This document shows, piece after piece, positions 6,401-24,162 of a DNA stretch of 64,000 nucleotides. Every line of letters begins with the position of its first letter. Position 1 is the first letter of the stretch. Origin of the DNA: a virus (lineage: Duplodnaviria > Caudoviricetes); IMG/VR virus record IMGVR_UViG_3300028591_000169, positions 15,414-79,413 of that record, one strand, 5' to 3'. The notes under the pieces were generated by a model that searched no databases, had not been told where the DNA came from, and saw only the letters and a list, made by a program, of their open reading frames with translations. A program made the position numbers and the translations under genes.

Positions 6401-9400
6401 TAATTCTGCAAGACCGGAATACGTCTCTCCTCCTTCAACTTCTTCCGGAAGTGTTCCGATCTTTATATTAGAATCGCCAGCAAGAATATAGACGGGACCG
6501 TCTTCGTTTTCCATACCGAAATGCAGCTCGGAATCTTCGGGAAGACTTTTCAAAACTTCCGCGACAGCCTGACCATCAGAACCAAGCATTGCCATATCCA
6601 TGTTCGGAGCAATGAACTTGTGCGGATTAGTCTTCTTGCCGGCGTCCTTACCTTCTTTCTTCTTGGTCTCGGGCTTTGGCTTCGACGGCTTTGTCTTATT
6701 CCCGATAGGAAGGAACTGAGCTATTTTCTGCGGGAAATTCACATTCAATGGTGTCCAACCTCCGGCTGGAACATTATTGCCGTTAAGCCATTCGGTAAGA
6801 CCAAGACCTTCTTCATTCTGAAGTTTGGCGACGTCTTCTGGATCTATCTCGTTTCCCTTCATGTCGTAGGCAACGGGAAGCATGTATTCCCTACCGCCCT
6901 TCTGCATAACAGCTCCCGGATAATACAGATAGATAATGCCAGTCGCGGGTACGCCGTCGAAATAGACATCTGCCTTGTCAAGGTTAACCTTCAATATGTT
7001 TGCGCCACCAAGAACATCGTGGCCCATCCTTGCGTTTTTCTTGAGGTCGTTACAGATTTCTTCAAACTTCTTCTGAGTGAGCGTATTACCGGTTGTCTTG
7101 AACTTGGTATTACCCTCTCCTGGCTCTTCCTGCTGTCCTGGTTTTTTCTTGGAGATAGTACGCTGTTTGAATTTACCGTATGTCTTAAGTTTTTTAGCCG
7201 CCGCCTCAACAGCTTCGTCCATAAGCGCGACGGCTTTTTCGCCGGCAATACCCGGAGCAATATCCTTGGCAGAATGTTTCGAAGTCAGGTCAAATGCGGT
7301 ATCGGAATTATGCATGAAATATTTCCATGCGGCAAGAGCCTGCTTGATATCTTCTTCTGTGGCACCAGATTTTTCGGCGATTTCCCTAACGTGCTTTTCG
7401 AGCGCCTTGTCAATATCGCGAACCTTCAGGTATTCATCGGCAACCTTGTTTCCTCTGTCAGCTTCTCTCTTGATATCAGCAAGCGTTTCGTTCGGGACGT
7501 CTCCGAGTTCATCCATAGCATTGACAAACTCGGATAACTTTTCAGTTGTAGAAAGCGTCTGAACAGCTTTGACAGCTTGGGATATACGCCGCAGTTCTTC
7601 CTGCTGACGGCGAATTCTTGTCATACGCTTCTGAATTAACTCCGGGTCATTGGAAAGCATGGAAATATTATCAATATACTTTCCGCGCTCCTTCATGTCA
7701 TATATGCCATCACCGGCATCTTTCAGTGCAACTTCGAGCTCGGACTTGTTTGTCGTGTCCTTCTTGTCCTTGTACTTATTCTTTAGCCAAGTGAAGTATG
7801 CTGGAGAACCGATGATGTCATAATCTGTCAGGTCCTTCGTTTGGTCCGCATGCGAAGTTCTATAAGCAGAGAGCATCGCGCTGGTTTCCGGATGCGCGAG
7901 TATGTCCTTAAGATCGTGCTCAATTTCGTTAAGATGGGTGGTCTGCCACGTCATTTCGGCGATTTGTGCGTCAGGCAGCATGTTCCCATACACAGTCTTT
8001 ATGTCATCAGCCACCTTAATGTAATCATCAAGCTGACGCTTCATCTTCTCGACATTCTTATTTATGAGATTTCTCATGCCGGAAGTCGTCATTTTCTGAA
8101 CATCGTCGCTAGCCGGGAACAGCTTTTTTATCTGCTCAATCGTATCATCGGAAACAGTGCTGAATGAATCAATAATGTCTATGAAATCCTGCAATCTTCC
8201 AGCTCTCTCAAACATCATCGCGTCATTAACGAGCTGCGCATGATCGGCTTTCTTGTATAAGTTCTGGTCACCTTGCTTGACAGCGCTTTCCTTAATGGAG
8301 TCAAAATGCGCATTCCCGATCTTGCCATAATAATAATTCAGAAAACTCGGGGATGAAAGTTTGTTATTAAGATTCTCGACAAGCTTATTCCTGCGATCAT
8401 ACATGTCGTTCTGCTCGCGAATAGGTGACCAGATACCACCTTCCATTGTGAGTTTCGGAGTGCGCTTTCCGTTTTCATTCACCTTGACAGATATAGAAGG
8501 AAGACCCAAGAAGCCCATGAAGCCACCAGCGAATCCCTCCACCCAGTCATCCTTGTTAAGCCAAGACTGACGCATTCCCTCCTTGGCGGCATCGAGCCAC
8601 GAAACGGTATCAGCAACAGCAATAGGGTCATAAAGCCTCTCCATGAATTCAGTCGTATCTCCCATGGCTTTTGCCTTGGCGGTTGCGCTAAAGAATGACT
8701 GATTCATTTCTTCCTGCATTTCGACAAGGACATTCCTAGAACCGGCACCAACCTTACCAAGGAAATCCGTGAACTTCGTGCCCTTTGACGCGTACCTGGT
8801 CGCTTTTATAAGTTCTTCCGGGGTTTTCGCGGCGCCCTTGAGCGCAGCATTCTCAGTGACTTTCTTGATGCCCTTTACGAGATTTCTGTCGATAGCATAT
8901 CCACCAAGCATGGCCTTGCCCCATTGAATCATATCACCGGCGGTCAAAAGCGGAACGTTCAGCGCAAAGATTGTATTTGCGACCATCGCCTTGTCATGGG
9001 CTATCTGCTCTTTAAGGTCATAGTAATTCTCGTCGACCAGCGCCTTCTGCTCGTCGTAATATGCCTTACCTTCCGGAGTATTGATATCAAGACCGTTCTT
9101 ATCCATCGTTCTCTGGATGCGACGGATTGCCTTAGCTCGCTCCATGTCCAAATCACCGTACATGTCTTCCAATGACTTTTCGAATTCAGACACACCGTTC
9201 AGGGCCTCAATACGAGCTTCACCAGTACCGGCGAGAAGACCACCGGCAATCTGTAGGCCAAGTTCATAGTTTTTCAACTGCTTCGCACTTTCGGCAAGCG
9301 CTTTGACGGCAGCTTCTTTTTCAAGACTTGTAGAGCCTTTCGCCAAGATTTCTACAACTTCACTGGCACTCTTGCCTTCAAGACCGAGCTCCGCGGCAAG

Positions 9401-10195
9401 ACCCTTGAACGCATCACGCGCTTCTTTTGCGCCGGTTAATTTACCAAGAACATTAACTGATGCCTTAGCCCCGACAACAGCGCCAATAGTAAAACCGGCA
9501 TTCTTGATGAGGGTATCACCAATAAAATTCGCGGTGAACATATTTTCCCACCACGGACGGTTACGCTCTTCAGACGTCTGGTTGTTCCTGAATATTTCCT
9601 CTGATTTCTCATTGATCCCCTGGAGATAAGCAGAAACAGGATTACTGACAAGCGCATTCAGGAAGTCGCGCCCGGAATGAATATTCCCGCTCGAAGACTC
9701 AACTGCGAGATTAATGATTCCAGCAGGAAGTCCAACCCAGGAATCAGCAGCAGTTGTGGCGGCGAGAATTCCCATCTTAGCAATGGAGTTTCCATATACA
9801 CCAAGCGTTGACTGCTGACGAGCACGAGCATCTTCAATGTCGTTGAGTTGAGACGGGCTGGTAAACCGCCTGTCAAAACGCGATTCGCCAAAACCAACCG
9901 ACGCGGCTTCAAGACCGATATCTTCAGATGGATTGGTCTCGAGATACCCCTGATACTGCGACTGCATCCGCTCGTTTCGGGAAGGCGTCCAATTAAGCAT
10001 CTGATTAAGAAGCTCACCCTCCTCGTCTATTTCGCGCATTCTCTGCCTGAACCGTTTGGCGGGTTCGTCTTCATATCGCCCGAATCGCGGATCTCCGGTT
10101 TCACGAAGATCGTTAAGCCTGTTTGCAAGTCCCGGGTTCGGAGCGATAGCGGATTCAAAAGTCAATCCACGGAGTCCCTGTTCTGTATTTGCCAT
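3446..10195 (-). CDS. Large virion cargo (ejected) protein, 2249 aa, with a C-terminal zincin-like metallopeptidase domain
   Basis: Lies next to the vRNAP-like gene. Carries LMHEIVHAF at 4529-4543 plus a downstream FEFIAEFFSNP third-ligand segment, and an N-terminal hydrophobic, Gly/Ala-rich region. Confidence 0.7.
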   Translation of the reverse strand: MANTEQGLRGLTFESAIAPNPGLANRLNDLRETGDPRFGRYEDEPAKRFRQRMREIDEEGELLNQMLNWTPSRNERMQSQYQGYLETNPSEDIGLEAASVGFGESRFDRRFTSPSQLNDIEDARARQQSTLGVYGNSIAKMGILAATTAADSWVGLPAGIINLAVESSSGNIHSGRDFLNALVSNPVSAYLQGINEKSEEIFRNNQTSEERNRPWWENMFTANFIGDTLIKNAGFTIGAVVGAKASVNVLGKLTGAKEARDAFKGLAAELGLEGKSASEVVEILAKGSTSLEKEAAVKALAESAKQLKNYELGLQIAGGLLAGTGEARIEALNGVSEFEKSLEDMYGDLDMERAKAIRRIQRTMDKNGLDINTPEGKAYYDEQKALVDENYYDLKEQIAHDKAMVANTIFALNVPLLTAGDMIQWGKAMLGGYAIDRNLVKGIKKVTENAALKGAAKTPEELIKATRYASKGTKFTDFLGKVGAGSRNVLVEMQEEMNQSFFSATAKAKAMGDTTEFMERLYDPIAVADTVSWLDAAKEGMRQSWLNKDDWVEGFAGGFMGFLGLPSISVKVNENGKRTPKLTMEGGIWSPIREQNDMYDRRNKLVENLNNKLSSPSFLNYYYGKIGNAHFDSIKESAVKQGDQNLYKKADHAQLVNDAMMFERAGRLQDFIDIIDSFSTVSDDTIEQIKKLFPASDDVQKMTTSGMRNLINKNVEKMKRQLDDYIKVADDIKTVYGNMLPDAQIAEMTWQTTHLNEIEHDLKDILAHPETSAMLSAYRTSHADQTKDLTDYDIIGSPAYFTWLKNKYKDKKDTTNKSELEVALKDAGDGIYDMKERGKYIDNISMLSNDPELIQKRMTRIRRQQEELRRISQAVKAVQTLSTTEKLSEFVNAMDELGDVPNETLADIKREADRGNKVADEYLKVRDIDKALEKHVREIAEKSGATEEDIKQALAAWKYFMHNSDTAFDLTSKHSAKDIAPGIAGEKAVALMDEAVEAAAKKLKTYGKFKQRTISKKKPGQQEEPGEGNTKFKTTGNTLTQKKFEEICNDLKKNARMGHDVLGGANILKVNLDKADVYFDGVPATGIIYLYYPGAVMQKGGREYMLPVAYDMKGNEIDPEDVAKLQNEEGLGLTEWLNGNNVPAGGWTPLNVNFPQKIAQFLPIGNKTKPSKPKPETKKKEGKDAGKKTNPHKFIAPNMDMAMLGSDGQAVAEVLKSLPEDSELHFGMENEDGPVYILAGDSNIKIGTLPEEVEGGETYSGLAELKELIKTEYLETGSKKNADGMWISEKYVNHLREKQDSGFVTTESNVPIDEIPGFDGLKEPVIMFVNDEKGGQEYYFSNNSVDISQVQFRMGASNQIKPGFAYLLVPSGKNKFIPVMLYTQNVNNDTLDLNNPEVIASGFGKRVSDAIDKIVAAVTNSNEKEKIRLFKLWAWASKTESSLNSLQNLLYFRSKGKIKTQFFIKELCAEHQGWFTNDDVVMVINTHYEDSGEDNPVMIVRGKTKPDGSEYTLREQIIDAMNDLEFETESGEIHKGPIAQISPAHFSEESDELSERIRELVDAKMLLTDVKDFDLSMPSYIMDYWSVAQKKFLRPAHPAAGSGRGTVKVTNRKTKGKGSEKIATMEIGGREIQFNLSTGEAKIGSGKWFSPITSTKSIDAEIKKLGFKDARDFVRTARAIAIIADKYGNSTTGDGRIGDRVLLKDFTKNKDEGFVITDNGGRFMTADELAKFKNELKSEKSKKTTRKKSAEAERVNEARKEIEKGQEGAKDEEPDNEDEFEQEADSNFRSRQREVEKMKKIHTVRQAIEHLKKHAPQYSEFLDKISGISFYDDVLVELADLTGAKSSRGGSTIGTNKFRFNEAQSIFTDSIVIGKDSLGYQTLMHEIVHAFTVVALRYDRNLYEDIKSEMNYLQDSIGNKRLSRVLGAYESAYAFENPFEFIAEFFSNPKLQKLAKEVKTPEEIDNKKPSVFARIVSFIANKLKSLFKKKTGSYYTDLKDKLMSVVDRQVELQETGKVTFKTGEEFEKAKRIASGASVDGVAMSTKIPTVEENYNYAYDWTLFNDGNLVPTKGRFTGPGKYLSLSQLVAANDRYSSLIGMRRFVNSNNLYEYNSGTESSLFGVRDENSGVFVVVRALPAGGSDYSALIRTASESEVPMIIGSTSDNVDFYKAFGFHPVHSGSVDGKVFMANKSFTDADLYKLGTTYRPFADVLDSNDEFTRLRREAYSDQDWNKFSEMEKYHARKCIGI

Positions 10196-10200
10196 ATCAA

Positions 10201-12168
10201 TTATTCAATATAATATTCGTCCTCATCATCATAATCATAGCCGGAAGTATCCATATTGTCTCCACCGGATTTAGCCGACCAACCCTCCTTGTATGGATTA
10301 GGAGACCAAGGCGTATTTGCGCTGTCAAACAAACCAAGAGCAAATGACCTGACCAATGCATTATAAACCGCACGGTCTACATTGTTCCCGTTTTTCACCA
10401 TCGGTCCGTAGTTTTGCATAAGGATGTCTGCGAAGTAACGAAGATCGATAGTGTCTCCATAGGTGGTCATTGATGCAATAAGATTATCTATCTTATTCTG
10501 TTCCTCCTGCGGAACGCCATCCGGGAGTGCGGAGTCAAACATGTGCTGGAGTTGCGCCGCATTAACATAGGCGGTTGTTCCATACAACACGGTCTTCGGA
10601 TCAAGATAAACCATTCTATCATTATACTTGCCGACATCCTGCGAATTATCAGAAGCGTCTCTCTGTACTACGATTTTCCCGGTTCTCGCATCAAAGCCAA
10701 TGAGAAGATTGTCGGATTCAAGAAGAGCCTTGAGTTCGCTTGCCTTTACAGCCGATCCGTCAGAATATTTCGCAACACTCTCGGCTACCTTGGCATTTCT
10801 CTTGCCTGACAATTCTCCTATATTCGGCTTGAAGACTGTACGCGCGATGTTCGAAGTGGCAGAAGGAAGTACACTAAACTGATAAATATGTTCATTGCTA
10901 ACGGACTTGTCAATATCACTCTTTAGTTGCGCAAGAACCGGGTCAAGATCGGTCTTTGTAATATAATTATCTTTCCCGCCGCTTAGCTCACCAAAGTACT
11001 TACTGTCAACCAAAACATCAAGCGCCTGGTCCACTGCGTCAACGAATGAGCCGTCTTCATTATAAAAACCACTCGTCTTCTTTAATTCATTCAGCGTATT
11101 TAATGCCTCATAGACCTTGTTTTTATCTTCGAACTCGTTGTATCCATTCTTGTCGGAAGGTCCTCTGAGAGAATTTCCGCGATGCCTGATAATGTTCGGA
11201 GCGTATACGGAATTGCCATTACCGGAACCACCCTTCGCGGCAGCTTTAACCCTTGCAACATCAAGATTGTGCTTATATCGCATGTCTTCGAGATCAATCT
11301 TCTGCTGCTGCGCCCAATCAAGATCCTGCAAGAATTGGACGTCGGATTTGCCAATTGCACTGGAAAGACCTTTCTTTCCATAATCAATAAGCCTATCGAA
11401 TTCGGACTTGTCGACCTTGCCAAACGCTCCGGTAGAATTAAGATTCGAAGAAAGGACACTGGCGAGAATAGAAGACGCTGGATCAAGTTTATCCAAAAGT
11501 CGCGTATCGCCATTATATGCAGCTCTGACAGCAAGCGTTGCCGCCTCAACCTGACCACTTGTAAATCCTTCTTTTTTCAGGATAGGAATATATCCCTTGA
11601 GCTGAGGATATTTGTCAAGAATCTCTGGATTGTTAAGCATCTCATCCATTCTGGCCTTTGCATCTGCGGCAACCTCGCCGGCAAATGCAGTTCCACTATA
11701 TGAATAATAATCCCTGCCAAACCTATCGTTCGCAAGAAACTTGTCGAGGGCTGCGGTTCCAGGGTCTTCTGCCATAACCATATCAGGATGCTCGTGCTTT
11801 GTCTTCCAATATTCATTGCTCAAATCCTGACGGGCCTTGATAGCGGTTCCAAGTCTTGTTATATCACTGGCGTATCCGGCCCTGGCCAATGCAAGGTCGC
11901 GCCTTGTTCCGGCATTGTATCCGCGCTCCCATAAATTATTCTGAAGGTTAGTGAGCTTCTCGGTATAAGAATCATACATTCTCCTCGCTTCAGAATCATC
12001 TGGCTCTCGCATGATATATTGGCGAAGAGCCTCGGTCTCTGCAACTAAAGTATCATAAGAGTCCTGTGCTGCATTATGAGCCTCAACGGTCTGCATAATG
12101 GGCTTAGCCAACTCATCATATGTATACGGCTGAAAATAAGAGCCGCTTGTAACTAAAAACTTAGGCAT
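10201..12168 (-). CDS. Virion cargo protein, 655 aa
   Basis: Long ORF with a crAss-type N-terminus (SYFQPYTYDELAKP), positioned in the cargo block. Confidence 0.65.
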   Translation of the reverse strand: MPKFLVTSGSYFQPYTYDELAKPIMQTVEAHNAAQDSYDTLVAETEALRQYIMREPDDSEARRMYDSYTEKLTNLQNNLWERGYNAGTRRDLALARAGYASDITRLGTAIKARQDLSNEYWKTKHEHPDMVMAEDPGTAALDKFLANDRFGRDYYSYSGTAFAGEVAADAKARMDEMLNNPEILDKYPQLKGYIPILKKEGFTSGQVEAATLAVRAAYNGDTRLLDKLDPASSILASVLSSNLNSTGAFGKVDKSEFDRLIDYGKKGLSSAIGKSDVQFLQDLDWAQQQKIDLEDMRYKHNLDVARVKAAAKGGSGNGNSVYAPNIIRHRGNSLRGPSDKNGYNEFEDKNKVYEALNTLNELKKTSGFYNEDGSFVDAVDQALDVLVDSKYFGELSGGKDNYITKTDLDPVLAQLKSDIDKSVSNEHIYQFSVLPSATSNIARTVFKPNIGELSGKRNAKVAESVAKYSDGSAVKASELKALLESDNLLIGFDARTGKIVVQRDASDNSQDVGKYNDRMVYLDPKTVLYGTTAYVNAAQLQHMFDSALPDGVPQEEQNKIDNLIASMTTYGDTIDLRYFADILMQNYGPMVKNGNNVDRAVYNALVRSFALGLFDSANTPWSPNPYKEGWSAKSGGDNMDTSGYDYDDEDEYYIE

Positions 12169-12173
12169 ATCTT

Positions 12174-15017
12174 TTAGTTATTTTTCTTCTTGAACGGGAC
12201 TAACGGTCTGAAAGTGAGATCCAACCCTTTATTATATCCCATGAAAGGATCGCTGCTATACTTAGGGACAGAACCAACATTAAATGCAGGAACAGGTTTT
12301 AATGCAGTTGCGGTGGTTACTTTGGCTTCGGTATTTTTTTCTGGAATCGTGGATATCGCCTCCATTCTACCAGTTAATGGATTATAAAATATACCGCCAT
12401 TAACACCCGTTCTATAACCAAGGAATGCCGGATTCGTATTAATCTGGTTCATGGCAAAATTCTCTTGCCCTATTCCAGAAAGAGCCTGTAGACCATTGCT
12501 GATCTGATTACTGATAGAATTATATTTATCTCCCTCTGCTTCATAATTAAGCCTTTGAACCATCAGGTCGTTTTGTGTGTTCCGAACCGCAGCGTCATTA
12601 AGTGCTTGCTTTCTTGCGGCATCAACCGTGTAATCAAACTGAGCCCGTTGCGCTTCCGCCTGATTATTAGCAGCCGTTACAGCATTCCGTCTCTGATTAT
12701 TCGCCTCCCACGCCTGGATGAACCCAGTGCCAAGATTACCAGTAGTATTGTTATCAGCAGCAAGGATTGCAGCAGCAGAAGACGGACCAAGACCAGAATT
12801 ACGCAAAGCACGATTGGTAGCATTGCCCTGTGCGATCTGGGCATTAGCTATCATATTCTGATCAATGGGGTTATATACCTGATTCTGAAGATTAATCCTT
12901 CCTTCAGGCAACTGCGGGTTGATGTGCGGGACCGTATATCTATCGGGCTGCTGAAATACATTGTACAAACCAAGCAGGCCAGAGCCGATAGCCCCGGCAT
13001 AACGAGGCCGGGTAGGAAGAAGATTGTTGGGATCAGAAGTCGACTTGTCATCTTCTGCTGCGGAAGATGTAATATCAGAAATCGGATGAGGAGTTATTTT
13101 TAATCCATCAGGACGAGTATTTATTACCTGATTAGGAAAATTATAGCCAGCAGGACCATCCGCATATACATAAGACGGAGCGAGCACTTCCGAAGAATGG
13201 TTCTCATCATTTATCACAAATGCATTATGAATCCCATCTTGATTGCTTGTCGCAACACCACTGACAGACGGAGATGATGGCGCATCTGCAAAAACATAAG
13301 ATGGTTCCAGGATAGTGTTCGAACGAAGAATACCGGAACCGATAGCGCCATTACCAATAGTAAAAACAGGAGGCACAACATCGGATGTTCCAAGCGTCAT
13401 CGGGAAATTACGAAGAACCCCATAGCTAAAAGGAGATTTATATCCTCCTGGCCAAAAAAGATTTCCGCCATTAGCGAGAATTCTATGTTTTGCATTATCG
13501 TGCTTTTCCTCCTCAACAGCATGCACACCATATCCGATACCGCTACCAACAATAGGCATCTTATACTGCCACTCGCCATGATTCCACCATTTATTCTTGG
13601 CGCTCTTGGCTTTCTCGAGTTCTTTTGCAGCAACTTCTGCCGCTGCTTTAACCTCATCGGTGGCACCCTCTGCCGCAGCCAACGCGGACTTCTCCTTATA
13701 AATCTTCTCAAGTCCGGCTATCTCTTCCTCAAGAGCGGCCCGGTTATACATCGGTCCACCGGTAAATGCACCAATGGTCTTATTAGCTGCCTCAACTTGA
13801 GCACGAGTTGTCTTCGCTGATGCTTTCAGTGCGTCGACATCCGCCCTTGCTGATCTCGCCTCAAGTTCTGCAAGCGTTTGCTGGAGTGCTTTGTTATTAG
13901 GATCTGCGGCAAGATTAGCTCTTGCAATCTTTACTTCATCTGCAATAGCATTCGCGGTATTTCTAGCTGCGCTTGAGGCGGCTTTCGCTTCATCTACGAC
14001 GGCGCGTGCCTCCTGAAGCATTGTCTTTCTACCAGAAGCCTCAACGAGTTTACCGGGTGCATTCTTAATCGCATTACCTATCTTTTTCAAGCCACGCCAT
14101 ACACTTCTTCCAATCGGGCCAGTGACTCTACCAGCCTGTCGCATGAGCGGAGAACCAAATGCCTGAGTCGCATCTTCCGGAATTAAGAAACTGGCAACTT
14201 TCCCAACAGTTGAATTATCCCACCATTCCTGTGCATCATCAATAGCCCGTACAACTTTATTGTCAGAACCAAGAGCCATTTCAAGAAGCGAAGGGACCTC
14301 TGGTGCCACATAATTGTCGCCATAATTCAGGTTGTCAAAAGAAAAAACCTCTCGTCCACCGCCGCCTACAGAAGAACCTTGCGGTTTAACACCCGGATCT
14401 CCGGGGACAACTCGACCTGGAGTGCCATCACCAAATACGCGAAGAAATCCACCATTAGCCATCATTGGCATTCCTTCTGTCGGAATAGATTCAGCAGGCC
14501 CCATCATCTGTTCAGGAGAAGCTTCCATCGGTGCCTGTTCCGGAGCAATCTGTTCCTGTTCTCCCTGAGCAAGCATCGCTTCCAACTGGTCAAGTTCTTC
14601 CGGTGAAAGCTGAGCCAGCTCATCTTCCAAGTCTCTCTGTTCCTTCGCTTGCTTCTGACTTTCCTGAGCATCTGCAAGTCTACCAAGAAGAGCTTCAAGA
14701 CCGTTACGAGAAATCGGATCAAGCGGTCTCTCCTCTGCCTCTGAGAACAAATCATCGGCTATCTTGGAATACAGCTTTCCTGTATACTTCTTCGGAAGAT
14801 TGTTGTCTACAAGAAACTGTTCCTCGGCTTCAATGTTATCGGAGTAAACATAGTCCTTGTACACCGGTTCACCTTCTTCAAGGAGATTCGGATTGCCTTC
14901 AGGGTCAACTCCAATCTGAACGCCACCGTTGGGGTTCTCCTCGTGGGAACCGCCCTCGTTGACTCTCAGATAATCTTTCGGCGCAAAATATCCGCCATGG
15001 GTATCAAACTTCGACAT
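12174..15017 (-). CDS. Virion cargo protein, 947 aa, modular, with repeated xxGG motifs
   Basis: N-terminus (NEGGSHEENPNGGVQIG...NLLEEGE) is typical of crAss cargo proteins. Contains an acidic linker, ANGG motifs at 14448 and 13464, an Ala-rich helix and hydrophobic segments. Confidence 0.7.
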   Translation of the reverse strand: MSKFDTHGGYFAPKDYLRVNEGGSHEENPNGGVQIGVDPEGNPNLLEEGEPVYKDYVYSDNIEAEEQFLVDNNLPKKYTGKLYSKIADDLFSEAEERPLDPISRNGLEALLGRLADAQESQKQAKEQRDLEDELAQLSPEELDQLEAMLAQGEQEQIAPEQAPMEASPEQMMGPAESIPTEGMPMMANGGFLRVFGDGTPGRVVPGDPGVKPQGSSVGGGGREVFSFDNLNYGDNYVAPEVPSLLEMALGSDNKVVRAIDDAQEWWDNSTVGKVASFLIPEDATQAFGSPLMRQAGRVTGPIGRSVWRGLKKIGNAIKNAPGKLVEASGRKTMLQEARAVVDEAKAASSAARNTANAIADEVKIARANLAADPNNKALQQTLAELEARSARADVDALKASAKTTRAQVEAANKTIGAFTGGPMYNRAALEEEIAGLEKIYKEKSALAAAEGATDEVKAAAEVAAKELEKAKSAKNKWWNHGEWQYKMPIVGSGIGYGVHAVEEEKHDNAKHRILANGGNLFWPGGYKSPFSYGVLRNFPMTLGTSDVVPPVFTIGNGAIGSGILRSNTILEPSYVFADAPSSPSVSGVATSNQDGIHNAFVINDENHSSEVLAPSYVYADGPAGYNFPNQVINTRPDGLKITPHPISDITSSAAEDDKSTSDPNNLLPTRPRYAGAIGSGLLGLYNVFQQPDRYTVPHINPQLPEGRINLQNQVYNPIDQNMIANAQIAQGNATNRALRNSGLGPSSAAAILAADNNTTGNLGTGFIQAWEANNQRRNAVTAANNQAEAQRAQFDYTVDAARKQALNDAAVRNTQNDLMVQRLNYEAEGDKYNSISNQISNGLQALSGIGQENFAMNQINTNPAFLGYRTGVNGGIFYNPLTGRMEAISTIPEKNTEAKVTTATALKPVPAFNVGSVPKYSSDPFMGYNKGLDLTFRPLVPFKKKNN

Positions 15018-15020
15018 ATC

Positions 15021-15851
15021 TTATTTAACTTTTACTCGATAAACACATCCACCATTTGTCATTATTCGCTGGACATTGGAAGGTTTCCTTTCTCTCTGAA
15101 CCGCTTTCTGTCCAAGAACCTTGTCAGCATATTCCTTGATGCTCTGCTGTCTTCTGATCGGACCGCCATTGGCAACGGCATTGACCGCATTCTGCCTATG
15201 GATGTTGTCTCCAATCCGCTCGTGAGCTGCTGCAAAGTTCTGCCGTGAAGCGTCAGCAGCAAAGTCGGAATCAATCTGCAATGTCTCCTGCCTTGTCTTT
15301 GCTGCGGAGTTTCCAGTAAGAACTCCGCCAAGACCAGTACCGAGACCGATAACACCTCCAGCCAACGCACCCCAAGGTCCACCAATTTGCAATCCGGTCA
15401 TTGCCCCGGACAGCGTTGAAGTCGCAACAGAACCTACCTGCTGACCAGTAGTCATTCCGCGGATATCCTGATAATTGAACTGCGGATTGAAATTGGTCTG
15501 AGCATAGTCATTCGCAAGCTGATCATAGTTGTTATAATTGATATTACCGGCATTACGGAGATCAGCAATCTGATTCTCCTGCATCGTGGTGTCACGAATC
15601 TGAGCATCTTTGAATGCATTTGACAGAAGAGTTGTTGCGCCAGTAAGACCAGCAACAATGCCACCGGCAACAGCCTGGCCTTGCTGTGCGCGAAGGGCAG
15701 AATCCTCGGCATTATACTGATCTTCACGCCCATACCAAGAATCATTATCATTGGCTGCGTAAGCCTCAGCTAATTGCGCTCGCCTTCTTGCCGCGTCTTG
15801 ATACGACCCGACAAAAGACTGATTGTACATATTATCCCACCAAGTTGCCAT
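15021..15851 (-). CDS. Virion cargo/ejection protein with a glycine-zipper transmembrane hairpin, 276 aa
   Basis: Contains LSGAMTGLQIGGPWGALAGGVIGLGTGLGGVLTG and GGIVAGLTGATTLL. Immediately follows the muzzle gene, the usual position of a membrane-active ejection protein. Confidence 0.65.
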   Translation of the reverse strand: MATWWDNMYNQSFVGSYQDAARRRAQLAEAYAANDNDSWYGREDQYNAEDSALRAQQGQAVAGGIVAGLTGATTLLSNAFKDAQIRDTTMQENQIADLRNAGNINYNNYDQLANDYAQTNFNPQFNYQDIRGMTTGQQVGSVATSTLSGAMTGLQIGGPWGALAGGVIGLGTGLGGVLTGNSAAKTRQETLQIDSDFAADASRQNFAAAHERIGDNIHRQNAVNAVANGGPIRRQQSIKEYADKVLGQKAVQRERKPSNVQRIMTNGGCVYRVKVK

Positions 15852-18800
15852 TATTCAAAATATTTAACAACTATATCATGTAACTGCATCAGGTACTTAC
15901 CGTCAACATCGTTCTTGCGGAAAAGCAGGTTAATCCAAGGATTACGAATTCGGTCCATACCATGCTTGTTCGTTCCTTCCTTCAGAGCTCTCGGGATAAC
16001 CAGTCTCCAGATGCGGAACTTCTTACGGACATCATCACGATTAAACTGTTCGTGAGCAAACAGCGTAAAGCCGGTATCCTGATATTCATCCCAGACCTTG
16101 AAGTCCGTGAATGTCTCCCACTCCTTATAGGTGTCATCGATGTCTCCATTGATGAGTTCAGTTTCGGAAACAATGGGCTCGGCATTGTCGTCAAGCACTT
16201 CGAAGAAGTCTGCCCTGTAATCAATGTTCGTCCAAATCTTGTCACCGAACGGATCAGGAGTGACGCGATACTGTGTCCAGTAATCGTACTGCTTCCCGAA
16301 GAAGTTACAATATAAGCCCTCGTTCTGAAGCCAGAGTTTATTGTCCCGGAACGACACGAGTCGGTCTTCGACATTCGTGATCATCGGGACCTCCCGATAA
16401 TCGAAGAAACTGGTGAATGCACCGAGCGTTTCATTGTAAACGAGACAAGGCTTATCGTCATTCTTGCGGACAAGATAGATATCCGAGTGAACCTTATCGT
16501 AATACGATACAATATTATTGAATTTGCTCGGAGCCCAAGGCTCAATATTGTTTATCTCGCGGAACCAAGCACCGAATCCGAGACGCGTGGACAGATTGTC
16601 AATGGCCTGACCATTGAATGAGCAGAATGCCTTGTTGATATTATCAACGAAATACAATGCATTCTTGCCTTCGATGATAGACCACTTGTTCACGCAGCCG
16701 TACTTGTTCGTGATATAACGTTTGCCGTCAACCTTGCCAGAGTTCGCAATCTCAACAGGAACTCCATCCTGCGTGGAAAGCTGGGTTCTGGAGTTGAACA
16801 GAATCTCGGATATGCCGCGATCCTGGAAAGCGATTATACTATTGCCCATTCTGCGAAGGGCTCTGCAAATACCTTTGTCGCCATCAAGCTTCAGCGTGCT
16901 TGCAAGTGTAACATGAGACCATTCGTCAATGTCTTCAGAGTCGTGCTTTTCAAGCGACCATGTAATGGAAGAGCGATAAGAATCGAGATTGAAATCAGAA
17001 TCCAGATCCCGCTGCACAATGAAATTATTGTGCTGGGAATAGACCGGATTAATCTGCCCGAACTTCTCGGCATCAATGGACGCCAAATGACTCACGCCAC
17101 GCTGCAAGTCAGTTCTTCCGTCAATGTTCACATGTGTCTCGATCATAACAGATGTGATGTCGACGACATTGTTAACAGCACCGGTAGAATACGGCTTTGT
17201 TTTCAGACAGTCCCATCTCTGGAAATAAGTATCACCCTGGTTTCCAATCAAGATATCGCTGATGCCGTCGGCGGTCATATCGGATACAAGATGTTGAGGA
17301 CCGGCTATGATAAAGCGATTGTTCTGAACAGCAGACTCCGTCGTCCCTCCGTATCTGGTGTCATCATCGAACGGGTAATATATTTCCCCGATGTACAGAT
17401 AACTATCGTCTTCACCAATCGTTCTCGCCGTATTCGTGATAGGATTACCAGAAAGCGCAAATGTCCCCTGGTTAACGGAATAATCCTTGAAAGGATAAAA
17501 CGCATCTTCGCTCTTCTTCGCCCAAGGAAGAACACAGCCAGTAATATCAGAAGTACGAGTAGGCAGTATTACGGATTCATTCACATGACTTGAAAAACGG
17601 GGCAAGATTGTCTGGACATATCCATTCAGAATATTCGTCGGAAGGCTCATGACAAGATGCGGACTTGACGAATAAGTTATCTGAACAGGGATGTCGGAGA
17701 ACATCGTATTCTCCTGATTATCATCAACAATGATAAAATCCTGATCATCAGCGGTAGCGAATGAACCAGAAGAATAAAGTATCGGATAACGAAGCTTGGA
17801 CGGCATCGAAAGCGATTCGTTCACAACGCCGTCATAATATCTCGTCTCACCACCGACCTTAAGACCAACATACTGGCTTGAAGTATAATTGAAAAGCCTA
17901 ACGGACTCCAGGTCATAAGTATTGTTCGTCACATTGAGGTTATTATACCATGTGACATTAGAATACTTTAAGTTGGCAAATGTCTTGGAATGAAGCTCAG
18001 AATATGTCTCATCAACCTGAGTGAAACTTCCATCCTGATTCTGATCATTGGAAACAAATGTCGTAATGCTTCCCGGATGGTGCCACATGTGCAACCAATA
18101 ACGACGAATGCTTCCATCGCGGATATAATCAATAGAATCCCAAAGCCGCCTGTTCTTTGTAGAATGATGGAACTCGGGAGCATCATCGGATTCATTTCGC
18201 TCGGTAATACCATATTCCCTCCACAGTGGCCAAGAAAGAATTCCGTTCGGAACACCGAATTTCTGATTAACAAGGTTTTCGCCAACCAATTTACCGGGAG
18301 AAGCATCAACGGTGTAATCAGATATTACGCTAGATATTTTAGCCACGCCAACTATACGAAGCTTGTACTTATCGGCGTTATCAAGAAGCATCGCCTCATG
18401 GTCAAATTCGGGCGAGTTAAGCGTGATTGTATTCTCGTCGATGAACATCAAATGCTTCTTATAATATGAAGGAGCATAATCCGGCGAAGAAGAAACATCA
18501 ACATCTGACACAGAGTACCATCTATCAGTCTGTCCGCGCCTGATATTAAGAGCAGCCCTAGAATCAGTATTAGCGACAAGACCGGTATTATATTGGAAAA
18601 AATAGTCAGTTTCCATATTGTCGTGCGTTGCAACGCACCACTGATAGAAAAGACCATCTTGATCAAGCGGAACTATATACTGAGATGGAATAGAATATTC
18701 AAGCAACTTGGAAGCTATACAATTATGGAGATGATTCTTTGTATCATTTCCACGATATTTCCCATAATCGCAAGTTGTCGTATAAATTGTAATTGCGAAA

Positions 18801-21800
18801 TTGCCGGAAGGAACAGTATATGTTCTCGATATGTCCTTTTGAATTCCAAGAGGAGACCATCGCAAAATTTCAGAAGCAAGTTCCTGTAACGCAAGTACGA
18901 ATTGCTGCGAATAAAAATCGTAATTGTTTAATTCACTAATCGCCTCAGGGGTAAAGGAGATTAATTTTGCAGTAACAAGAATAAAACTCCCATAATTTTG
19001 GTATACCGCACCTCGCGTTGCGATCTTATACAGTATAACGAAATAATCGAAATCAAGCCCGCTGTCAAAAACTTCGTCATACGAAGAATTGTCAGAGCCA
19101 TAATTTTTTATACGATAATATGGATTCGGATCTTCATCGGTAGTCCAGTAGTTACACTGGATCTCACCGGTAGACACGGTAGACTTGTTGATCGGCTGGA
19201 AATGCTTCCACGCATAATCAGACTGCCTAGGACGGCTTATCCAAGAAGACGAGGAGTAAGTGCGATTCTTAAATCTGTCCCAAACATTGAAAACCGTAGG
19301 GTTAATGATGCCCTGAGCCTTTACGGATCTGTCGGCATTCGTGGCCTCAGCAATCATAAGATTTGCCGTAGTAAAGCCAATTTCTTTAATGAAAGAAACC
19401 AGCTGTGCCGGGAGCGAACACTCGACAACCACACGATGAATCTTGTTCCCATCTATGACAGGATACTTATCGTTTACCTTGTCGCCAATCCAGAAGGCTT
19501 CGGTCATCGTTCCGTCGCCACGCCTGAAGCTTAAACCAAAACGATATTTTTCACCGCCCTTGAATGTTGTAATCTTGGACGATGAATCTACCAGCTGGCT
19601 ATTGTAGACATAGTTTTCTCCGGAATCATATGGAATGTCTGGCTTATTAGTGCTACCGTCGGAATACACGAATCGGATACAATCATTCGCAAATCCCTTC
19701 TCGACATCGGCGAACATCGTCGCCTTTATGATTGTCTCAAGATCGTTGTAATATTCTTTTCCTACAGACTGAATATCGCCAAGGAACAACGTCTGATCCT
19801 TGTGCGTAAGTGTAGAAGCTCTTACAAACTGGCTTCCAAGATAAAGAAGACGCGAAGAATCTATAGACACAAGATGAGAATTGTCATCAATGACAATAAC
19901 CTCGCCCACATTCGTTGTCCCATCAAATACGATATACGATACAGTCTTCCCGTCAAGCGCACTACGGAACACGGAATAAATTCTGAAGTGATCGAACCTT
20001 GTGTCAAGATTGGAAAGACGAAGCGTAACAGCATTCATGTTCGTACCGTCAGCAGAACCACCGGTATTAACAGGAGACAGGTAAATCAAATCGGAAATCC
20101 AAACGTATCCGGACTCCTGACCATGCTTGTTATAATAGGTCATGAGATACTGGACAACGCCATTCGCTCTTGTATTTCCGGAATTGCTCTTCGATACATC
20201 TACCTCAACGCCAAAATTGACGCTTCTATTTGAATCGAAGTAAGTACCATCTGCCCACCTTACTCTTTCTTCAGATCCTGATTCAGCCATGAAATTCATG
20301 AAACGAAGCGGATGAATGCCGTCCACCCAGTATATCTTCTGGATGTCTTCAGTCTCGTAATAGACAACGGACTCAATAGGATGGTCAAGAGAGAACCCGA
20401 GATTCCCGGAGAAGAGCATGTCCGCCTTGAAGGAATCGCCATCGTAATCTATCCTGTAGATATAATCGACAGATTCTTTCTCTTCCGTATCTTGATCGAT
20501 ATCAGAACCGCTGTTCACGACAGTAACGGTGCATCTGGCATTAACGGTAGGATTATCCTTCGCACGAACCGTTATGACAGCGACACCAACCGCAAGCGCC
20601 TGAATGTGTCCGTCTTCTCCGACAGATACAATGCTCGTATCAGACGAGGACCACAAGGACATCTCGGCGGCGATAGTCCGATGGCCATCCTCGTAAGTGA
20701 CGGTGGCAACAAGATTGCGGGAGGTTCCGACCTGCATTCTTACATTGCTGCTGGACAGACTTATCGACCTGACATTCAATTCAGGATGATTCGGGTTCGT
20801 GGACGGGATATCCGACTCGTCGTCAAACACGGCAACGGTTACAACATCCTTAATGACACCACCGTCAACCGACGCGGTAATGGTAGTGTACCCGGCGCTG
20901 ATACCGGTGACATTACCATTCGCATCGACAATCGCTATAGACGAGTCCTGACTTGTCCAAGTCACGGTCTTATCAGTAGCATTACTCGGAGTGATACTTG
21001 CCGTCAGTTTTGCGGAAGTATTCTTTACGAGGTTAAGGCTCTTCGGAGAAACAGAAAGATTAGTCACCTGGATGTAACCCCCGACAGAAACCTGACAGGT
21101 GTCTGTATATCCACCGTCTACCGTAGTTACTGTGACGAGCGCATTACCCTTGCCAACACCGACAACATTGCCATTCTGGTCAACGGTAACGATATCAGAA
21201 TTCGAACTCGACCAAGATACATCCTGAATATATGCGCCGTTCGGATAAATGGTGTAACCAAGATGCGCCTTGGCTCCGACGCCAAGACTGAGCGTATTCC
21301 TGTCAAGCTTGATTCCGGTAACAGCCTTATTGATGGGCACGAGATAATCCGTCGGGTCTTCAACGACGTGAACGGTCAGAAGTCTCGTTACGTTCGGAAA
21401 TTCCTCACAATAGACATTGTAGTATATGACGCCGTCAGGAACATCAGCATTAGCACGGATGTATATACGATACTTTCCGTTCTCGGTTGTATCGCTGAAA
21501 ACGGAGACATTCGCGGTAGTGGTTCCATCAAGTCTCTGAACTTTGATGCGCCCGCCAACATCGCCATTGGAATTCTTTCCGAAAGCAAGAACGACTCCAT
21601 CCGCTCCGCCCTTCTGGACAACCTTGACGTTCTCGGATAATTCTATCTCGACAACATCAGTAGGCTCGGGATTGACAGGAGAAATATATTTCTCGTAGTA
21701 ACCGCCAAGGACCTCGACCCAGACCGGATAATAGATATACGGATTGGACTTGAGGTAAAAGGTAACCGGGACGATGCCGTAATCATAGCCGCGGGCTATA

Positions 21801-22684
21801 CGGACAAAATCTTTCTCTGAATTGATAAAGGATACGACTCTTGTCTCAGGAATAATCCAGCCTATATCCGTCGTATGGTCTTCAATCTGTTCGAATTCGT
21901 CATTGTCGTAAACGACTAAACTCGTCTTGAACGGATTCTTCCTTATCGCTGTAGATTCGTAAATCGAAATATCGTCGTTATAATAGAACTCGATGCTGTC
22001 ATTTCCACAAACAAGCCGAAGACCTTCATCTTCTGTTTTCTGATTGACGACATGGACGGTGCAGGTTGCGATGCCGAATTCCGGGTATGTAGGATTGTAG
22101 ACCTTTATATGATATGTACCGGCAGAGTGAGCCTTGAACCATGTTATCGTATTCGTTCCTCCAAACTCCTGCTTGTATTCAAGCGTGAGTTTATTTACGG
22201 ACTGCTCGTCAGGAACGAATTCCCAACGACCACGATAGTTCTGTGACTTGACGAGTTCGCTCTTGTAATCGCCACCCATACCCCTTGCGCGGACGCAGAA
22301 CAGCTGGTTCTTCTGAACCGTTACTTCTTCCGGCGCAAGAAAGATAGTATAAGGGATGTGATAGTTTTCTCCAGGAACCTCGTCATTGGCAACGACATTG
22401 ACATTCAATATCGCATATTTACTGCGATCTACAACCGAATAGACACGAACAGTAGTAGAACCGGCGGATACACCTTTGATAGTTATAACCGTATCATAGT
22501 AATCCTTATACTTGGCTACGGAACCGCCAACATAGCGAACGACATCCTTGTCTTCGACTATGACCTCGACGACACTCTTGTCTACAGCGCCGGTATCAGT
22601 AATTACTTCGGCCTTGATCTGGGCCTGTTCATTTTTATTGACAACGACGCTGTATTTTGATAACCGTATGCTTGCAATGGACAT
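15851..22684 (-). CDS. Tail muzzle/stabilisation protein (P22 gp10-like), main part, preceded by about 740 aa of Ig-like (Big_2) domains
   Basis: Muzzle-type motifs GNLGFSLDHPIESVVYYETEDIQKIYWVDG, FKGGEKYRFG, GDTYFQRWDCLKT and RKKFRIWR. At least three clear Big_2 repeats (W-S-S-S-[ND]-x-x-I-[VA]-x-V...G) lie at about 20520-21335. Confidence 0.8.
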   Translation of the reverse strand: MSIASIRLSKYSVVVNKNEQAQIKAEVITDTGAVDKSVVEVIVEDKDVVRYVGGSVAKYKDYYDTVITIKGVSAGSTTVRVYSVVDRSKYAILNVNVVANDEVPGENYHIPYTIFLAPEEVTVQKNQLFCVRARGMGGDYKSELVKSQNYRGRWEFVPDEQSVNKLTLEYKQEFGGTNTITWFKAHSAGTYHIKVYNPTYPEFGIATCTVHVVNQKTEDEGLRLVCGNDSIEFYYNDDISIYESTAIRKNPFKTSLVVYDNDEFEQIEDHTTDIGWIIPETRVVSFINSEKDFVRIARGYDYGIVPVTFYLKSNPYIYYPVWVEVLGGYYEKYISPVNPEPTDVVEIELSENVKVVQKGGADGVVLAFGKNSNGDVGGRIKVQRLDGTTTANVSVFSDTTENGKYRIYIRANADVPDGVIYYNVYCEEFPNVTRLLTVHVVEDPTDYLVPINKAVTGIKLDRNTLSLGVGAKAHLGYTIYPNGAYIQDVSWSSSNSDIVTVDQNGNVVGVGKGNALVTVTTVDGGYTDTCQVSVGGYIQVTNLSVSPKSLNLVKNTSAKLTASITPSNATDKTVTWTSQDSSIAIVDANGNVTGISAGYTTITASVDGGVIKDVVTVAVFDDESDIPSTNPNHPELNVRSISLSSSNVRMQVGTSRNLVATVTYEDGHRTIAAEMSLWSSSDTSIVSVGEDGHIQALAVGVAVITVRAKDNPTVNARCTVTVVNSGSDIDQDTEEKESVDYIYRIDYDGDSFKADMLFSGNLGFSLDHPIESVVYYETEDIQKIYWVDGIHPLRFMNFMAESGSEERVRWADGTYFDSNRSVNFGVEVDVSKSNSGNTRANGVVQYLMTYYNKHGQESGYVWISDLIYLSPVNTGGSADGTNMNAVTLRLSNLDTRFDHFRIYSVFRSALDGKTVSYIVFDGTTNVGEVIVIDDNSHLVSIDSSRLLYLGSQFVRASTLTHKDQTLFLGDIQSVGKEYYNDLETIIKATMFADVEKGFANDCIRFVYSDGSTNKPDIPYDSGENYVYNSQLVDSSSKITTFKGGEKYRFGLSFRRGDGTMTEAFWIGDKVNDKYPVIDGNKIHRVVVECSLPAQLVSFIKEIGFTTANLMIAEATNADRSVKAQGIINPTVFNVWDRFKNRTYSSSSWISRPRQSDYAWKHFQPINKSTVSTGEIQCNYWTTDEDPNPYYRIKNYGSDNSSYDEVFDSGLDFDYFVILYKIATRGAVYQNYGSFILVTAKLISFTPEAISELNNYDFYSQQFVLALQELASEILRWSPLGIQKDISRTYTVPSGNFAITIYTTTCDYGKYRGNDTKNHLHNCIASKLLEYSIPSQYIVPLDQDGLFYQWCVATHDNMETDYFFQYNTGLVANTDSRAALNIRRGQTDRWYSVSDVDVSSSPDYAPSYYKKHLMFIDENTITLNSPEFDHEAMLLDNADKYKLRIVGVAKISSVISDYTVDASPGKLVGENLVNQKFGVPNGILSWPLWREYGITERNESDDAPEFHHSTKNRRLWDSIDYIRDGSIRRYWLHMWHHPGSITTFVSNDQNQDGSFTQVDETYSELHSKTFANLKYSNVTWYNNLNVTNNTYDLESVRLFNYTSSQYVGLKVGGETRYYDGVVNESLSMPSKLRYPILYSSGSFATADDQDFIIVDDNQENTMFSDIPVQITYSSSPHLVMSLPTNILNGYVQTILPRFSSHVNESVILPTRTSDITGCVLPWAKKSEDAFYPFKDYSVNQGTFALSGNPITNTARTIGEDDSYLYIGEIYYPFDDDTRYGGTTESAVQNNRFIIAGPQHLVSDMTADGISDILIGNQGDTYFQRWDCLKTKPYSTGAVNNVVDITSVMIETHVNIDGRTDLQRGVSHLASIDAEKFGQINPVYSQHNNFIVQRDLDSDFNLDSYRSSITWSLEKHDSEDIDEWSHVTLASTLKLDGDKGICRALRRMGNSIIAFQDRGISEILFNSRTQLSTQDGVPVEIANSGKVDGKRYITNKYGCVNKWSIIEGKNALYFVDNINKAFCSFNGQAIDNLSTRLGFGAWFREINNIEPWAPSKFNNIVSYYDKVHSDIYLVRKNDDKPCLVYNETLGAFTSFFDYREVPMITNVEDRLVSFRDNKLWLQNEGLYCNFFGKQYDYWTQYRVTPDPFGDKIWTNIDYRADFFEVLDDNAEPIVSETELINGDIDDTYKEWETFTDFKVWDEYQDTGFTLFAHEQFNRDDVRKKFRIWRLVIPRALKEGTNKHGMDRIRNPWINLLFRKNDVDGKYLMQLHDIVVKYFE

Positions 22685-22696
22685 ATGTCTAATCTT

Positions 22697-22966
22697 TTAT
22701 TCGCCAGTATTCGTCTTCACTGCATCGTCGTGAAGGAAAAGGATGATGTGATTCTTCAGAACATTCCAGCCGACAACTTTACCAGGAAGTTCCGGAAGCG
22801 GAATCTCCTTAGTCCCGCGCTCGTTGGTCACAGATAGAAGAGTGTCGTGATCGCGGGCAATGATGCGGATATTATGATTCTCATACGCAGAAGACTCGCC
22901 TGCCTTTGAAATGGACAGGTCGCGGTTCATGCCTTTGTTCTGTAAGACGAATGCCTTCTGTTTCAT
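22697..22966 (-). CDS. Detached N-terminal 89 aa of the muzzle protein
   Basis: KGMNRDLSISK...NIRI...LLSVTNERGTKEI matches the crAss muzzle N-terminus as I recall it. In frame with 15851-22684 and separated from it by TAA plus 4 codons. Confidence 0.7.
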   Translation of the reverse strand: MKQKAFVLQNKGMNRDLSISKAGESSAYENHNIRIIARDHDTLLSVTNERGTKEIPLPELPGKVVGWNVLKNHIILFLHDDAVKTNTGE

Positions 22967-22969
22967 ACC

Positions 22970-23707
22970 CTAATGTCTTTTCCAGTATTCCTTTGCACCG
23001 TTGTCGAAGAACGCCTTCCAGTGCTGGTTGTTTCTCGGAAGCAAGGTCTTGAACGAATTGAACAGCGTTTCCGCCTTGTCGAGATCGAGACGGGAGAATT
23101 CATTCTGGGCATCACCAACGGACCAGCAATATTCCTGCTGCGCATTGGCGAACACCTGCTGCGATATCTTCCCCATATCGAACTGGATAGTGAACCACTG
23201 TAGTTTAATGTAGTTCTCAAGTCCGCGAAGGAAAGACGCGTTGTCGGGAAGAAGCGGATAGCCCTCCTCGTCAACAGCGAAACCGCGATATGCAACTTCG
23301 ACATCAACATCCTTCGTGGAGGTGAAGATGACCATTCCCTGCGTCTTATAAGTGAGTTCACCCGTGAGCAAAGCATCCGGCTTGATATCGGACATATGAA
23401 ACGAATGACCGGAATAGCGATAGACCGGACCGAAGAATCCGGGCTTTCGGCAACAGTCGAGCCAGCGTTTTGCGTGCTGACGACCAGCCATTCTTACCTG
23501 GATCATCTCAACGAAATCACAGGGCAACTGACCGCGCCAATTATGGACATCAACGATTGCCGTCTTCTCGTCATACAGCGCCGGAGTCCCCATCAGCTCG
23601 ATGAAGTCAATTGCATATTCGACGGCAGTCTCGAAAGGGATGTCTCGCATCATCGGATGACGCATCACCCTGTCAAGGATTCTTCGTATGTTGGTTGTCT
23701 GGTTCAT
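22970..23707 (-). CDS. Tail ring/tubular protein (P22 gp4-like), 245 aa
   Basis: Conserved position upstream of the muzzle; motifs LPCDF and DEEGYPLLPDN...ENYIK. Confidence 0.65.
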   Translation of the reverse strand: MNQTTNIRRILDRVMRHPMMRDIPFETAVEYAIDFIELMGTPALYDEKTAIVDVHNWRGQLPCDFVEMIQVRMAGRQHAKRWLDCCRKPGFFGPVYRYSGHSFHMSDIKPDALLTGELTYKTQGMVIFTSTKDVDVEVAYRGFAVDEEGYPLLPDNASFLRGLENYIKLQWFTIQFDMGKISQQVFANAQQEYCWSVGDAQNEFSRLDLDKAETLFNSFKTLLPRNNQHWKAFFDNGAKEYWKRH

Positions 23708-24162
23708 ATCATTTCTTTTCCATATTCAATCGGAACCCACGGACAGTCATAAGACCGATACAGTTCCTTCATCTTCTTAAACAGTCTTCGGTTCGCGACG
23801 AAGCCGTAGCATCTCAAGTTTTTGTTCTTGTCCCTTCTTGGAAGATAGGTAATGCTGAACGCTTCCGGCTCTCCATCAAAATGTCCTTTTTCCCAGTTGA
23901 AGCCTCCGTATCCGACAAACTTGTCTCCACGATACTGCGGGCTTTTCCGTATCGTCACCGCTGCAACCGTTCCCAATCCGCACGGAAGGTCTACGGCACC
24001 TTCCTTTTTCAAATCTTCAGCGAGCAGACTGCAATATTCCTTGACGATAGCCGTATATGTATGTAGGTTTACCGGTTCATTCTTTCTCGTCCTTCTGACA
24101 TACACTTCGTAGCCGTCGGTCATGTCAGGATATCTTGCCTGTCCGCTGAATGCCAATCTCAT
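23704..24162 (-). CDS. IHF/HU-like DNA-binding protein, 152 aa
   Basis: Segment YTAIVKEYCSLLAEDLKKEGAVDLPCGLGTV resembles the HU/IHF fold; crAss tail modules carry such a gene at this position. Confidence 0.55.
   Translation of the reverse strand: MRLAFSGQARYPDMTDGYEVYVRRTRKNEPVNLHTYTAIVKEYCSLLAEDLKKEGAVDLPCGLGTVAAVTIRKSPQYRGDKFVGYGGFNWEKGHFDGEPEAFSITYLPRRDKNKNLRCYGFVANRRLFKKMKELYRSYDCPWVPIEYGKEMI

Follow-up and report, generated by a model that had tools for sequence, protein, structure and literature searches.

A split muzzle gene with an immunoglobulin-like array at a predicted propeller hairpin in a crAss-like phage

Crassviruses are the dominant phages of mammalian guts, and the muzzle, the most distinctive and conserved part of their tail, is thought to gate the ejection of DNA and cargo and to contact the host surface. 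The stretch of DNA analysed here, called the window, comprises 64,000 nucleotides (nt) of a tailed virus (Caudoviricetes), positions 15,414 to 79,413 of the 79.4-kb IMG/VR record IMGVR_UViG_3300028591_000169. Its muzzle gene is divided into two open reading frames (ORFs): a small one of 89 amino acids (aa), here named MuzN, and a large one of 2277 aa, Ig-MuzC, in which an array of seven immunoglobulin-like (Ig-like) domains precedes the remainder of the muzzle. The muzzle is probably made as two chains that rebuild the fold by strand complementation, with the Ig array forming a free arm at the N-terminus of the large chain, a reading to which a probability of roughly 0.75 is assigned.

Both ORFs lie on the minus strand in the same frame. 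MuzN (22697..22966) has the C-terminal end ...HIILFLHDDAVKTNTGE, followed by the stop codon TAA at 22697-22699; its residues 1-79 form a conserved core whose last strand reads HIILFLH, and residues 80-89 form a variable, charged tail. A 12-nt spacer, AAGATTAGACAT (22685..22696; AAG ATT AGA CAT in codons), leads from the TAA to the ATG of Ig-MuzC (15851..22684) and preserves the common frame. The Ig array, delimited by AlphaFold2 and Foldseek, occupies residues 1-723 of the large ORF (20516..22684), and its domains 5-7 are three canonical Big_2 repeats (20516..21322; Pfam PF02368 and PHROG Ig-domain families). An acidic linker (residues 724-739, SGSDIDQDTEEKES...; 20468..20515), evident from the translation and from the confidence of the structure model, joins the array to the muzzle fold. 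The muzzle body (residues 740-2277; 15854..20467), defined by crAss_MUZ profile segments, opens with the strand DYIYRIDYD, DYIYR starting at residue 740 (nt 20467). ORF coordinates and translation thus bear out the layout of an 89-aa ORF, a TAA, four further codons and an in-frame 2277-aa ORF that the initial annotation, made from the letters alone, had described.

Taken together, by sequence, order and synteny, the two ORFs constitute a member of the crAss_MUZ family. The 89-aa ORF matches positions 7-84 of the 1224 positions of the Pfam profile PF25731 (crAss_MUZ) with an E-value of 2e-19 and 69.7 bits, the curated Pfam cut-off being 27 bits for both crAss_MUZ and crAss_MUZ_C. The 2277-aa ORF matches crAss_MUZ with 621 bits (E 7e-186) and PF25729 (crAss_MUZ_C) with 29.1 bits, the latter at about 15986-16312 within the muzzle body. 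In a six-frame family search, profile positions 7-85, 80-320, 403-619 and 612-1224 are collinear along the minus strand. About 740 aa are interposed between profile positions 84 and 80, and the profile is picked up again at position 80 near window position 20485, in agreement with the earlier proposal that muzzle sequence resumes at DYIYR. MuzN also aligns to residues 11-85 of gp44 of Bacteroides phage crAss001 (PDB 7QOK; E 3e-15) at about 50% identity; with the Pfam match, this confirms that the small ORF corresponds to muzzle N-termini. The muzzle gp44 (PDB 7QOK, 7QOL, 8CKB; PMC10172136) belongs to the same family and stands in the same gene order of ring 2, ring 1, muzzle, cargo 1 and cargo 2, but it is one chain of 1371 aa, whereas in the muzzle of the window the break falls at about gp44 residue 85-95, and a seven-domain Ig array stands before the second piece. 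The single polypeptide seen in gp44 is interrupted here by the TAA after profile position 84, with a new ATG 12 nt on.

The position of the split within the fold can be read from unsplit relatives. In more than 30 of them, 5-15 residues separate the ILF strand from the DxIYR strand, in line with the few residues that the initial annotation gave for the LVLF and D.IYR segments of crAss muzzle proteins. An AlphaFold2 model of one unsplit relative, L143, places a strand at residues 76-82 (QIILFTT), a loop of 8 residues and a second strand at residues 91-99 (DYIYRIEYD); the model covers the first 1199 residues, was built from an alignment of 21 sequences and has a predicted local distance difference test (pLDDT) score of 64 overall and about 67-77 locally. 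On this model the split point lies in the turn of a beta-hairpin, and the array enters between two adjacent strands, as expected from the initial suggestion of an insertion into a loop. Three four-strand groups precede the IG1 domain in the model. In crAss001, blades 2 and 3 of the propeller are separated by IG1 (residues 163-292), and a ring-joining domain precedes or accompanies the propeller (PMC10172136). Because of the strand order in the model and this domain description, the hairpin is most simply taken as the opening hairpin of blade 1 and the first strand group as the ring-joining part, although it may belong to blade 2.

The same hairpin carries other insertions. Their size can be read from how far the ILF strand lies from PIES, the conserved motif that follows it; in most muzzle genes this distance is 34-60 residues. 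This distance rises to 112 aa in L078, which has a beta domain of about 60 aa at this point, to 182 aa in L075 (an insert of about 135 aa), to 258 aa in L072 (a helical insert of about 215 aa, after which the Pfam profile resumes at position 83) and to 441 aa in L073, where about 400 aa form approximately three beta-sandwich domains with Gly/Pro linkers on both sides. These sister muzzles share with the window an insert at the same hairpin, but each is an unsplit single chain with no stop or restart. In the window and in a second assembly of the same type, L005, the distance is 785 aa, with an Ig array of about 740 aa in a split gene; L060 is likewise split and has an Ig array, within which its contig ends. 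The hairpin is therefore a general insertion hot spot. In the published account of crassvirus muzzle length variation, the crass and IG2 domains are the only ones named as carrying insertions (Bayfield et al. 2023, PMC10172136).

A lone in-frame stop in an otherwise continuous frame looks like a sequencing or assembly error, or like a recent nonsense mutation that inactivates the gene. The separate assembly IMGVR_UViG_3300028888_000006 (L005), however, carries the identical junction of TAA, 12 nt and ATG, while its large ORF differs from that of the window in 220 of 6834 nt (3.2%), about 200 of these differences being synonymous, and its 89-aa ORF at 12 synonymous sites. The same stop is present in L060, about 40 protein clusters are cut at the same point, and close copies of the 89-aa ORF fall into four 90% identity clusters (P0001-P0004) with about 29 member sequences. 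The ratio of non-synonymous to synonymous substitution rates (dN/dS) is 0.019 for the MuzN core (codons 1-79) compared with L060, at a synonymous divergence (dS) of 1.44, and 0.026 for the large ORF compared with L005. Both pieces are functional and under strong purifying selection, and 31 columns of the MuzN core are invariant among 17 sequences of 66-92% identity. The ten-codon tail of MuzN, with a dN/dS of 0.52 against L060, behaves like a free end. Because the stop is shared with a diverged assembly and both parts are selected, a sequencing or assembly error, which the initial annotation had wished to see excluded, is rejected with very little doubt, and so is a pseudogene.

Reassignment of the TAA to an amino acid in this phage is equally remote. 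Recoding of TAG or TGA is known in other crAss-like phages, and the muzzle frames of three related IMG/VR contigs (L011, L012 and L046) contain many in-frame stops, the first four listed in L046 being TAG; this points to stop-codon-recoded crAss-like relatives and to the presence of recoding in the group. Unlike these, the window uses the standard code. Among 61 ORFs of this genome, 34 end in TAA, 14 in TAG and 13 in TGA, all three codons close well-delimited ORFs, the large muzzle ORF itself ends in TAA, no other in-frame stops occur, and no tRNA genes are found in the genome. Reassignment is thus rejected as well.

The split is not confined to the window. A homologue search with the 89-aa ORF, restricted to proteins of 48-156 aa, returned 56 proteins. 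Forty of the 56 are of the split type: they end 5-12 residues past the ILF strand with short, variable and mostly charged tails (KDKE, RDINE, DDEEEVR and others), and their identity to the window ranges from 99% down to about 55%. Seven run on into DxIYR and are unsplit genes cut at contig ends, and the remaining nine lack the motif or are fragments that cannot be classified. The ends of the split-type proteins fall within an 8-residue window, and random truncation would not produce such a pile-up. Large ORFs with a related array are P0057 (96% identity), P0058 (94%), P0123 (45% in the array), L060 (46%) and P0179 and P0182 (about 30%); all six start with Met, 2-5 residues and the first Ig strand, and all are without the muzzle N-terminus. 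A fused chain of N-terminus, array and muzzle body was found neither in word-index searches nor in a full HMMER pass over 1.84 billion representatives. The search of IMG/VR returned a single split contig (L005/L013/L059), the contigs of GTDB genomes contain two muzzles, both unsplit, and the GenBank phages of INPHARED give no nucleotide match and no tblastn match to array residues 1-540. Judging from these homologues, the split is ancient and widespread and not a one-off event.

Several minor features of the related muzzle genes were recorded in these searches. Apart from the hairpin, the N-terminal piece has a second variable loop, with about 35-40 extra residues (NLRITED.ELR.TE...) between the KEI and GWNVL strands, carried by split and unsplit genes alike (L009, L019, L079, L084, P0017, P0021, P0022, P0025, P0026, P0031, P0035, P0036 and P0039); among the split-type proteins, one subgroup has an extra loop of about 35 aa that is also present in unsplit relatives. 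Two further muzzle genes break into several different stops, after about 146 aa in L037:9001-9600 and shortly past the DxIYR strand in L094; unlike the clean split, these breaks look like frameshifts or assembly errors. Two contigs of 108-118 kb, L141 (CAVKAQ010000001.1) and L140, have an unsplit crAss-type muzzle gene and are binned in metagenome-assembled genomes labelled Butyricicoccaceae (Bacillota) and Bacteroidales; the Butyricicoccaceae binning is probably an artefact.

Two ways of making the muzzle, as two complementing chains or by readthrough of the TAA, had been left side by side in the initial annotation; comparative evidence favours the two chains, and readthrough is retained as an improbable alternative. 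Programmed or leaky readthrough would yield a single chain of about 2370 aa, as the functional product or as an essential minor one, in which the array would be a loop insertion anchored at both ends. Two observations agree with it and weigh against separate chains. In the two lineages with DNA that could be compared, the window with L005 and L060, the gap between TAA and ATG is in frame and exactly 12 nt long, a geometry kept at a dS of about 1.4 and with 9 of the 12 spacer bases different; this could reflect a frame constraint, and hence some readthrough, or spacing only. In addition, the multi-domain insert of about 400 aa in L073 is fused and tolerated at the same hairpin, so that cutting the chain is not a topological necessity, and the idea that a linear Ig array requires a cut chain in the hairpin is weakened by these approximately three domains on long Gly/Pro linkers.

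Other features of the junction argue against readthrough. UAA is the least leaky bacterial stop, and its contexts here are TAAA and TAAT. No significant RNA structure is predicted at the stop (z of -0.02 and +0.45) and no suppressor tRNA is found, while TAA is the terminator of more than half of the ORFs counted above. Although the spacer keeps its length, the encoded peptide is not conserved, reading KIRH in the window and LPSL in L060. All six lineages retain the Met directly ahead of the first Ig strand, and the length of the MuzN tail varies among split-type proteins. Neither a leaky context nor a stimulatory element nor coding conservation across the stop is therefore seen, and conservation of the frame in two lineages is the one feature that points to readthrough. 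The gap itself is ordinary in an operon whose gene gaps range from -4 to +12 nt; no terminator lies between the two ORFs on the minus strand, and no internal promoter or terminator scores above shuffled sequences. It might also be supposed that MuzN is a dispensable remnant and that Ig-MuzC works alone, with the place of the lost N-terminal strands taken by the array or by some other protein, and the first 56 residues of the truncated model of an unsplit relative are indeed of low confidence (pLDDT 23-41). The MuzN core, however, is among the most conserved stretches and the ORF is retained intact in about 40 clusters, which makes this explanation very unlikely, more so than readthrough.

Under the preferred reading of two chains, polypeptides from the adjacent genes would build the muzzle jointly. 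MuzN would provide the N-terminal strands, probably the ring-joining part and the first strand of a propeller blade, and would end just past HIILFLH. Ig-MuzC would start at its own ATG with the seven Ig-like domains and the acidic linker, after which the strand DYIYRIDYD would enter the fold. In unsplit relatives this strand is the predicted hairpin partner of the MuzN strand, and beta-strand complementation between the two chains would therefore restore the usual fold. With the hairpin cut open, the array would be tethered at one end only. Each hexameric muzzle may carry six such flexible arms, about 25 nm long and projecting close to where the tail barrel meets the muzzle, with a likely role in glycan or surface adhesion.

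A precedent for strands supplied in trans exists in the Pseudomonas podophage A1002, in which the structure of a split nozzle, composed of nozzle-rope gp39 and nozzle-base gp42, was solved by electron cryo-microscopy (PLoS Biol 2026, PMC13730344). In the nozzle propeller of A1002, some strands of blades 1 and 2 are missing from one chain; they come, together with platform strands, from a second chain that also bears a long external extension. Both systems concern the nozzle of a podovirus, a seven-bladed propeller that is, or in the window would be, rebuilt from two chains, one of them with a long outward extension; in the window the break falls within a strand-loop-strand hairpin predicted by the model, and the two pieces are each conserved. 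The two also differ, as the extension of A1002 docks fibres, as a 'rope' to which separate fibre dimers bind, whereas that of the window is an Ig array covalently joined to the large piece, and the small piece here has only 89 aa. By analogy, then, the muzzle of the window may work like the split nozzle of A1002, whose arrangement is known from a structure. Together with that structure, the present case suggests that two-chain nozzles are a recurrent solution in podoviruses.

The Ig array itself consists of seven all-beta domains of beta-sandwich type, bounded approximately at residues 1-100, 107-216, 220-335, 343-441, 455-535, 541-620 and 637-723. The AlphaFold2 model of the array (pLDDT 76.6, predicted template modelling score 0.38) shows low-confidence linkers between these domains, followed by the acidic linker, whose residues 726-739 score below 50, and by the first muzzle strands. 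Foldseek returns tandem Ig arrays on top, including NUP210, titin I65-I70, protocadherins, S-layer proteins and DSCAM. Pfam recognises Big_2 (PF02368) in three stretches with 117 bits (E 3e-34), and domains 1-4 remain below Pfam detection, which matches the three clear repeats and the degenerate ones that the first reading of the sequence had placed in the N-terminal 740 aa or so. Domains 2-3 belong to no Pfam family; two distinctive motifs, PYTI..P.E..V..NQLF.VRARG and FYLKSNPYIYYPVWVE, mark them and are also present in Big_2 proteins of 600-1300 aa from ENA/Logan that are not muzzles (P0177, P0178, P0180 and P0181) and are possible cassette donors. A protein of 329 aa (P0183), which weakly matches array domain 1, is built from an Ig-like unit of about 108 aa repeated three times almost perfectly. 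No paralogue of the array occurs elsewhere in the genome, and an atlas search returned only generic Big_2-like neighbours.

Tandem Ig-like domains appended to phage virion proteins are a familiar decoration (Big_2, BACON, PKD and Hoc-type domains; the BAM model). Such domains on gut-phage virions are thought, and in some cases shown, to confer weak adhesion to glycans or mucus (bioRxiv 10.64898/2026.02.02.702849; Fraser et al. 2006, as cited). The known decorations are usually C-terminal or form separate decoration or fibre proteins, whereas the array of the window enters through the cut hairpin of the tail-tip gatekeeper.

The evolution of the split state was followed on a tree of the 79 N-terminal columns with 39 split and 35 unsplit rows, a short alignment in which recombination blurs the branching. 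The split state requires 11 changes on this tree, of which well-supported branches force at least 5; with shuffled labels 25 changes are required, and 0 of 500 shuffles are as low as 11. On such a tree the state is clustered but not monophyletic and has arisen or disappeared more than once, split and unsplit proteins being sisters, for example, in the pairs P0035/L009 and P0016/P0037. P0179 and P0182 match INPHARED GenBank phages through their muzzle bodies only, and the nearest IMG/VR relatives of these bodies (65% and 50% identity) are plain, unsplit muzzles, which fits an exchange of the array together with its start by recombination between conserved flanks. The wider proposal is that the ILF/DxIYR hairpin is a cassette-exchange site, at which an Ig module with its own start has been swapped repeatedly between crAss-like lineages, so that with every exchange a single-chain muzzle would become one of two strand-complemented chains, bearing six free adhesin arms, each about 25 nm long; it is put forward tentatively, at slightly less than even odds.

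In full-text literature searches, neither a split muzzle nor insertion at this hairpin was found described. If its two chains do complement each other, the naturally split muzzle would show that an assembly of roughly 1 MDa tolerates a cut chain. The hairpin, which accepts foreign domains of 60-740 aa, could serve as a defined site at which to study or display domains on phages that are hard to manipulate, and the Ig arms are candidate determinants of how lineages with no cultured member attach to capsule, mucus or feed particles. If it takes place, cassette exchange would act as a modular switch of niche or host-surface binding within the tail gatekeeper itself.

The genes around the two muzzle ORFs form a canonical crassvirus tail module in the order ring protein 2 (Pfam CrAss_Ring_2), ring protein 1, the two muzzle ORFs, a 276-aa ORF and cargo proteins 1 and 2. 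Tail ring protein 1 (22970..23707, minus strand; Pfam CrAss_Ring_1, E 1e-60) lies directly upstream of MuzN. Cargo protein 1 (12174..15017, minus strand; Pfam crAss_CARG1, E 5e-38) lies downstream and is followed by cargo protein 2 (10201-12168; Pfam crAss_CARGO2, E 4e-32). Three further ORFs of the minus strand have no Pfam match: one of 152 aa between ring proteins 2 and 1 (23704-24162), one of 2249 aa after cargo protein 2 (3446-10195) and the 276-aa ORF (15021-15851), which overlaps the muzzle stop by one base in a TAATG-type junction.

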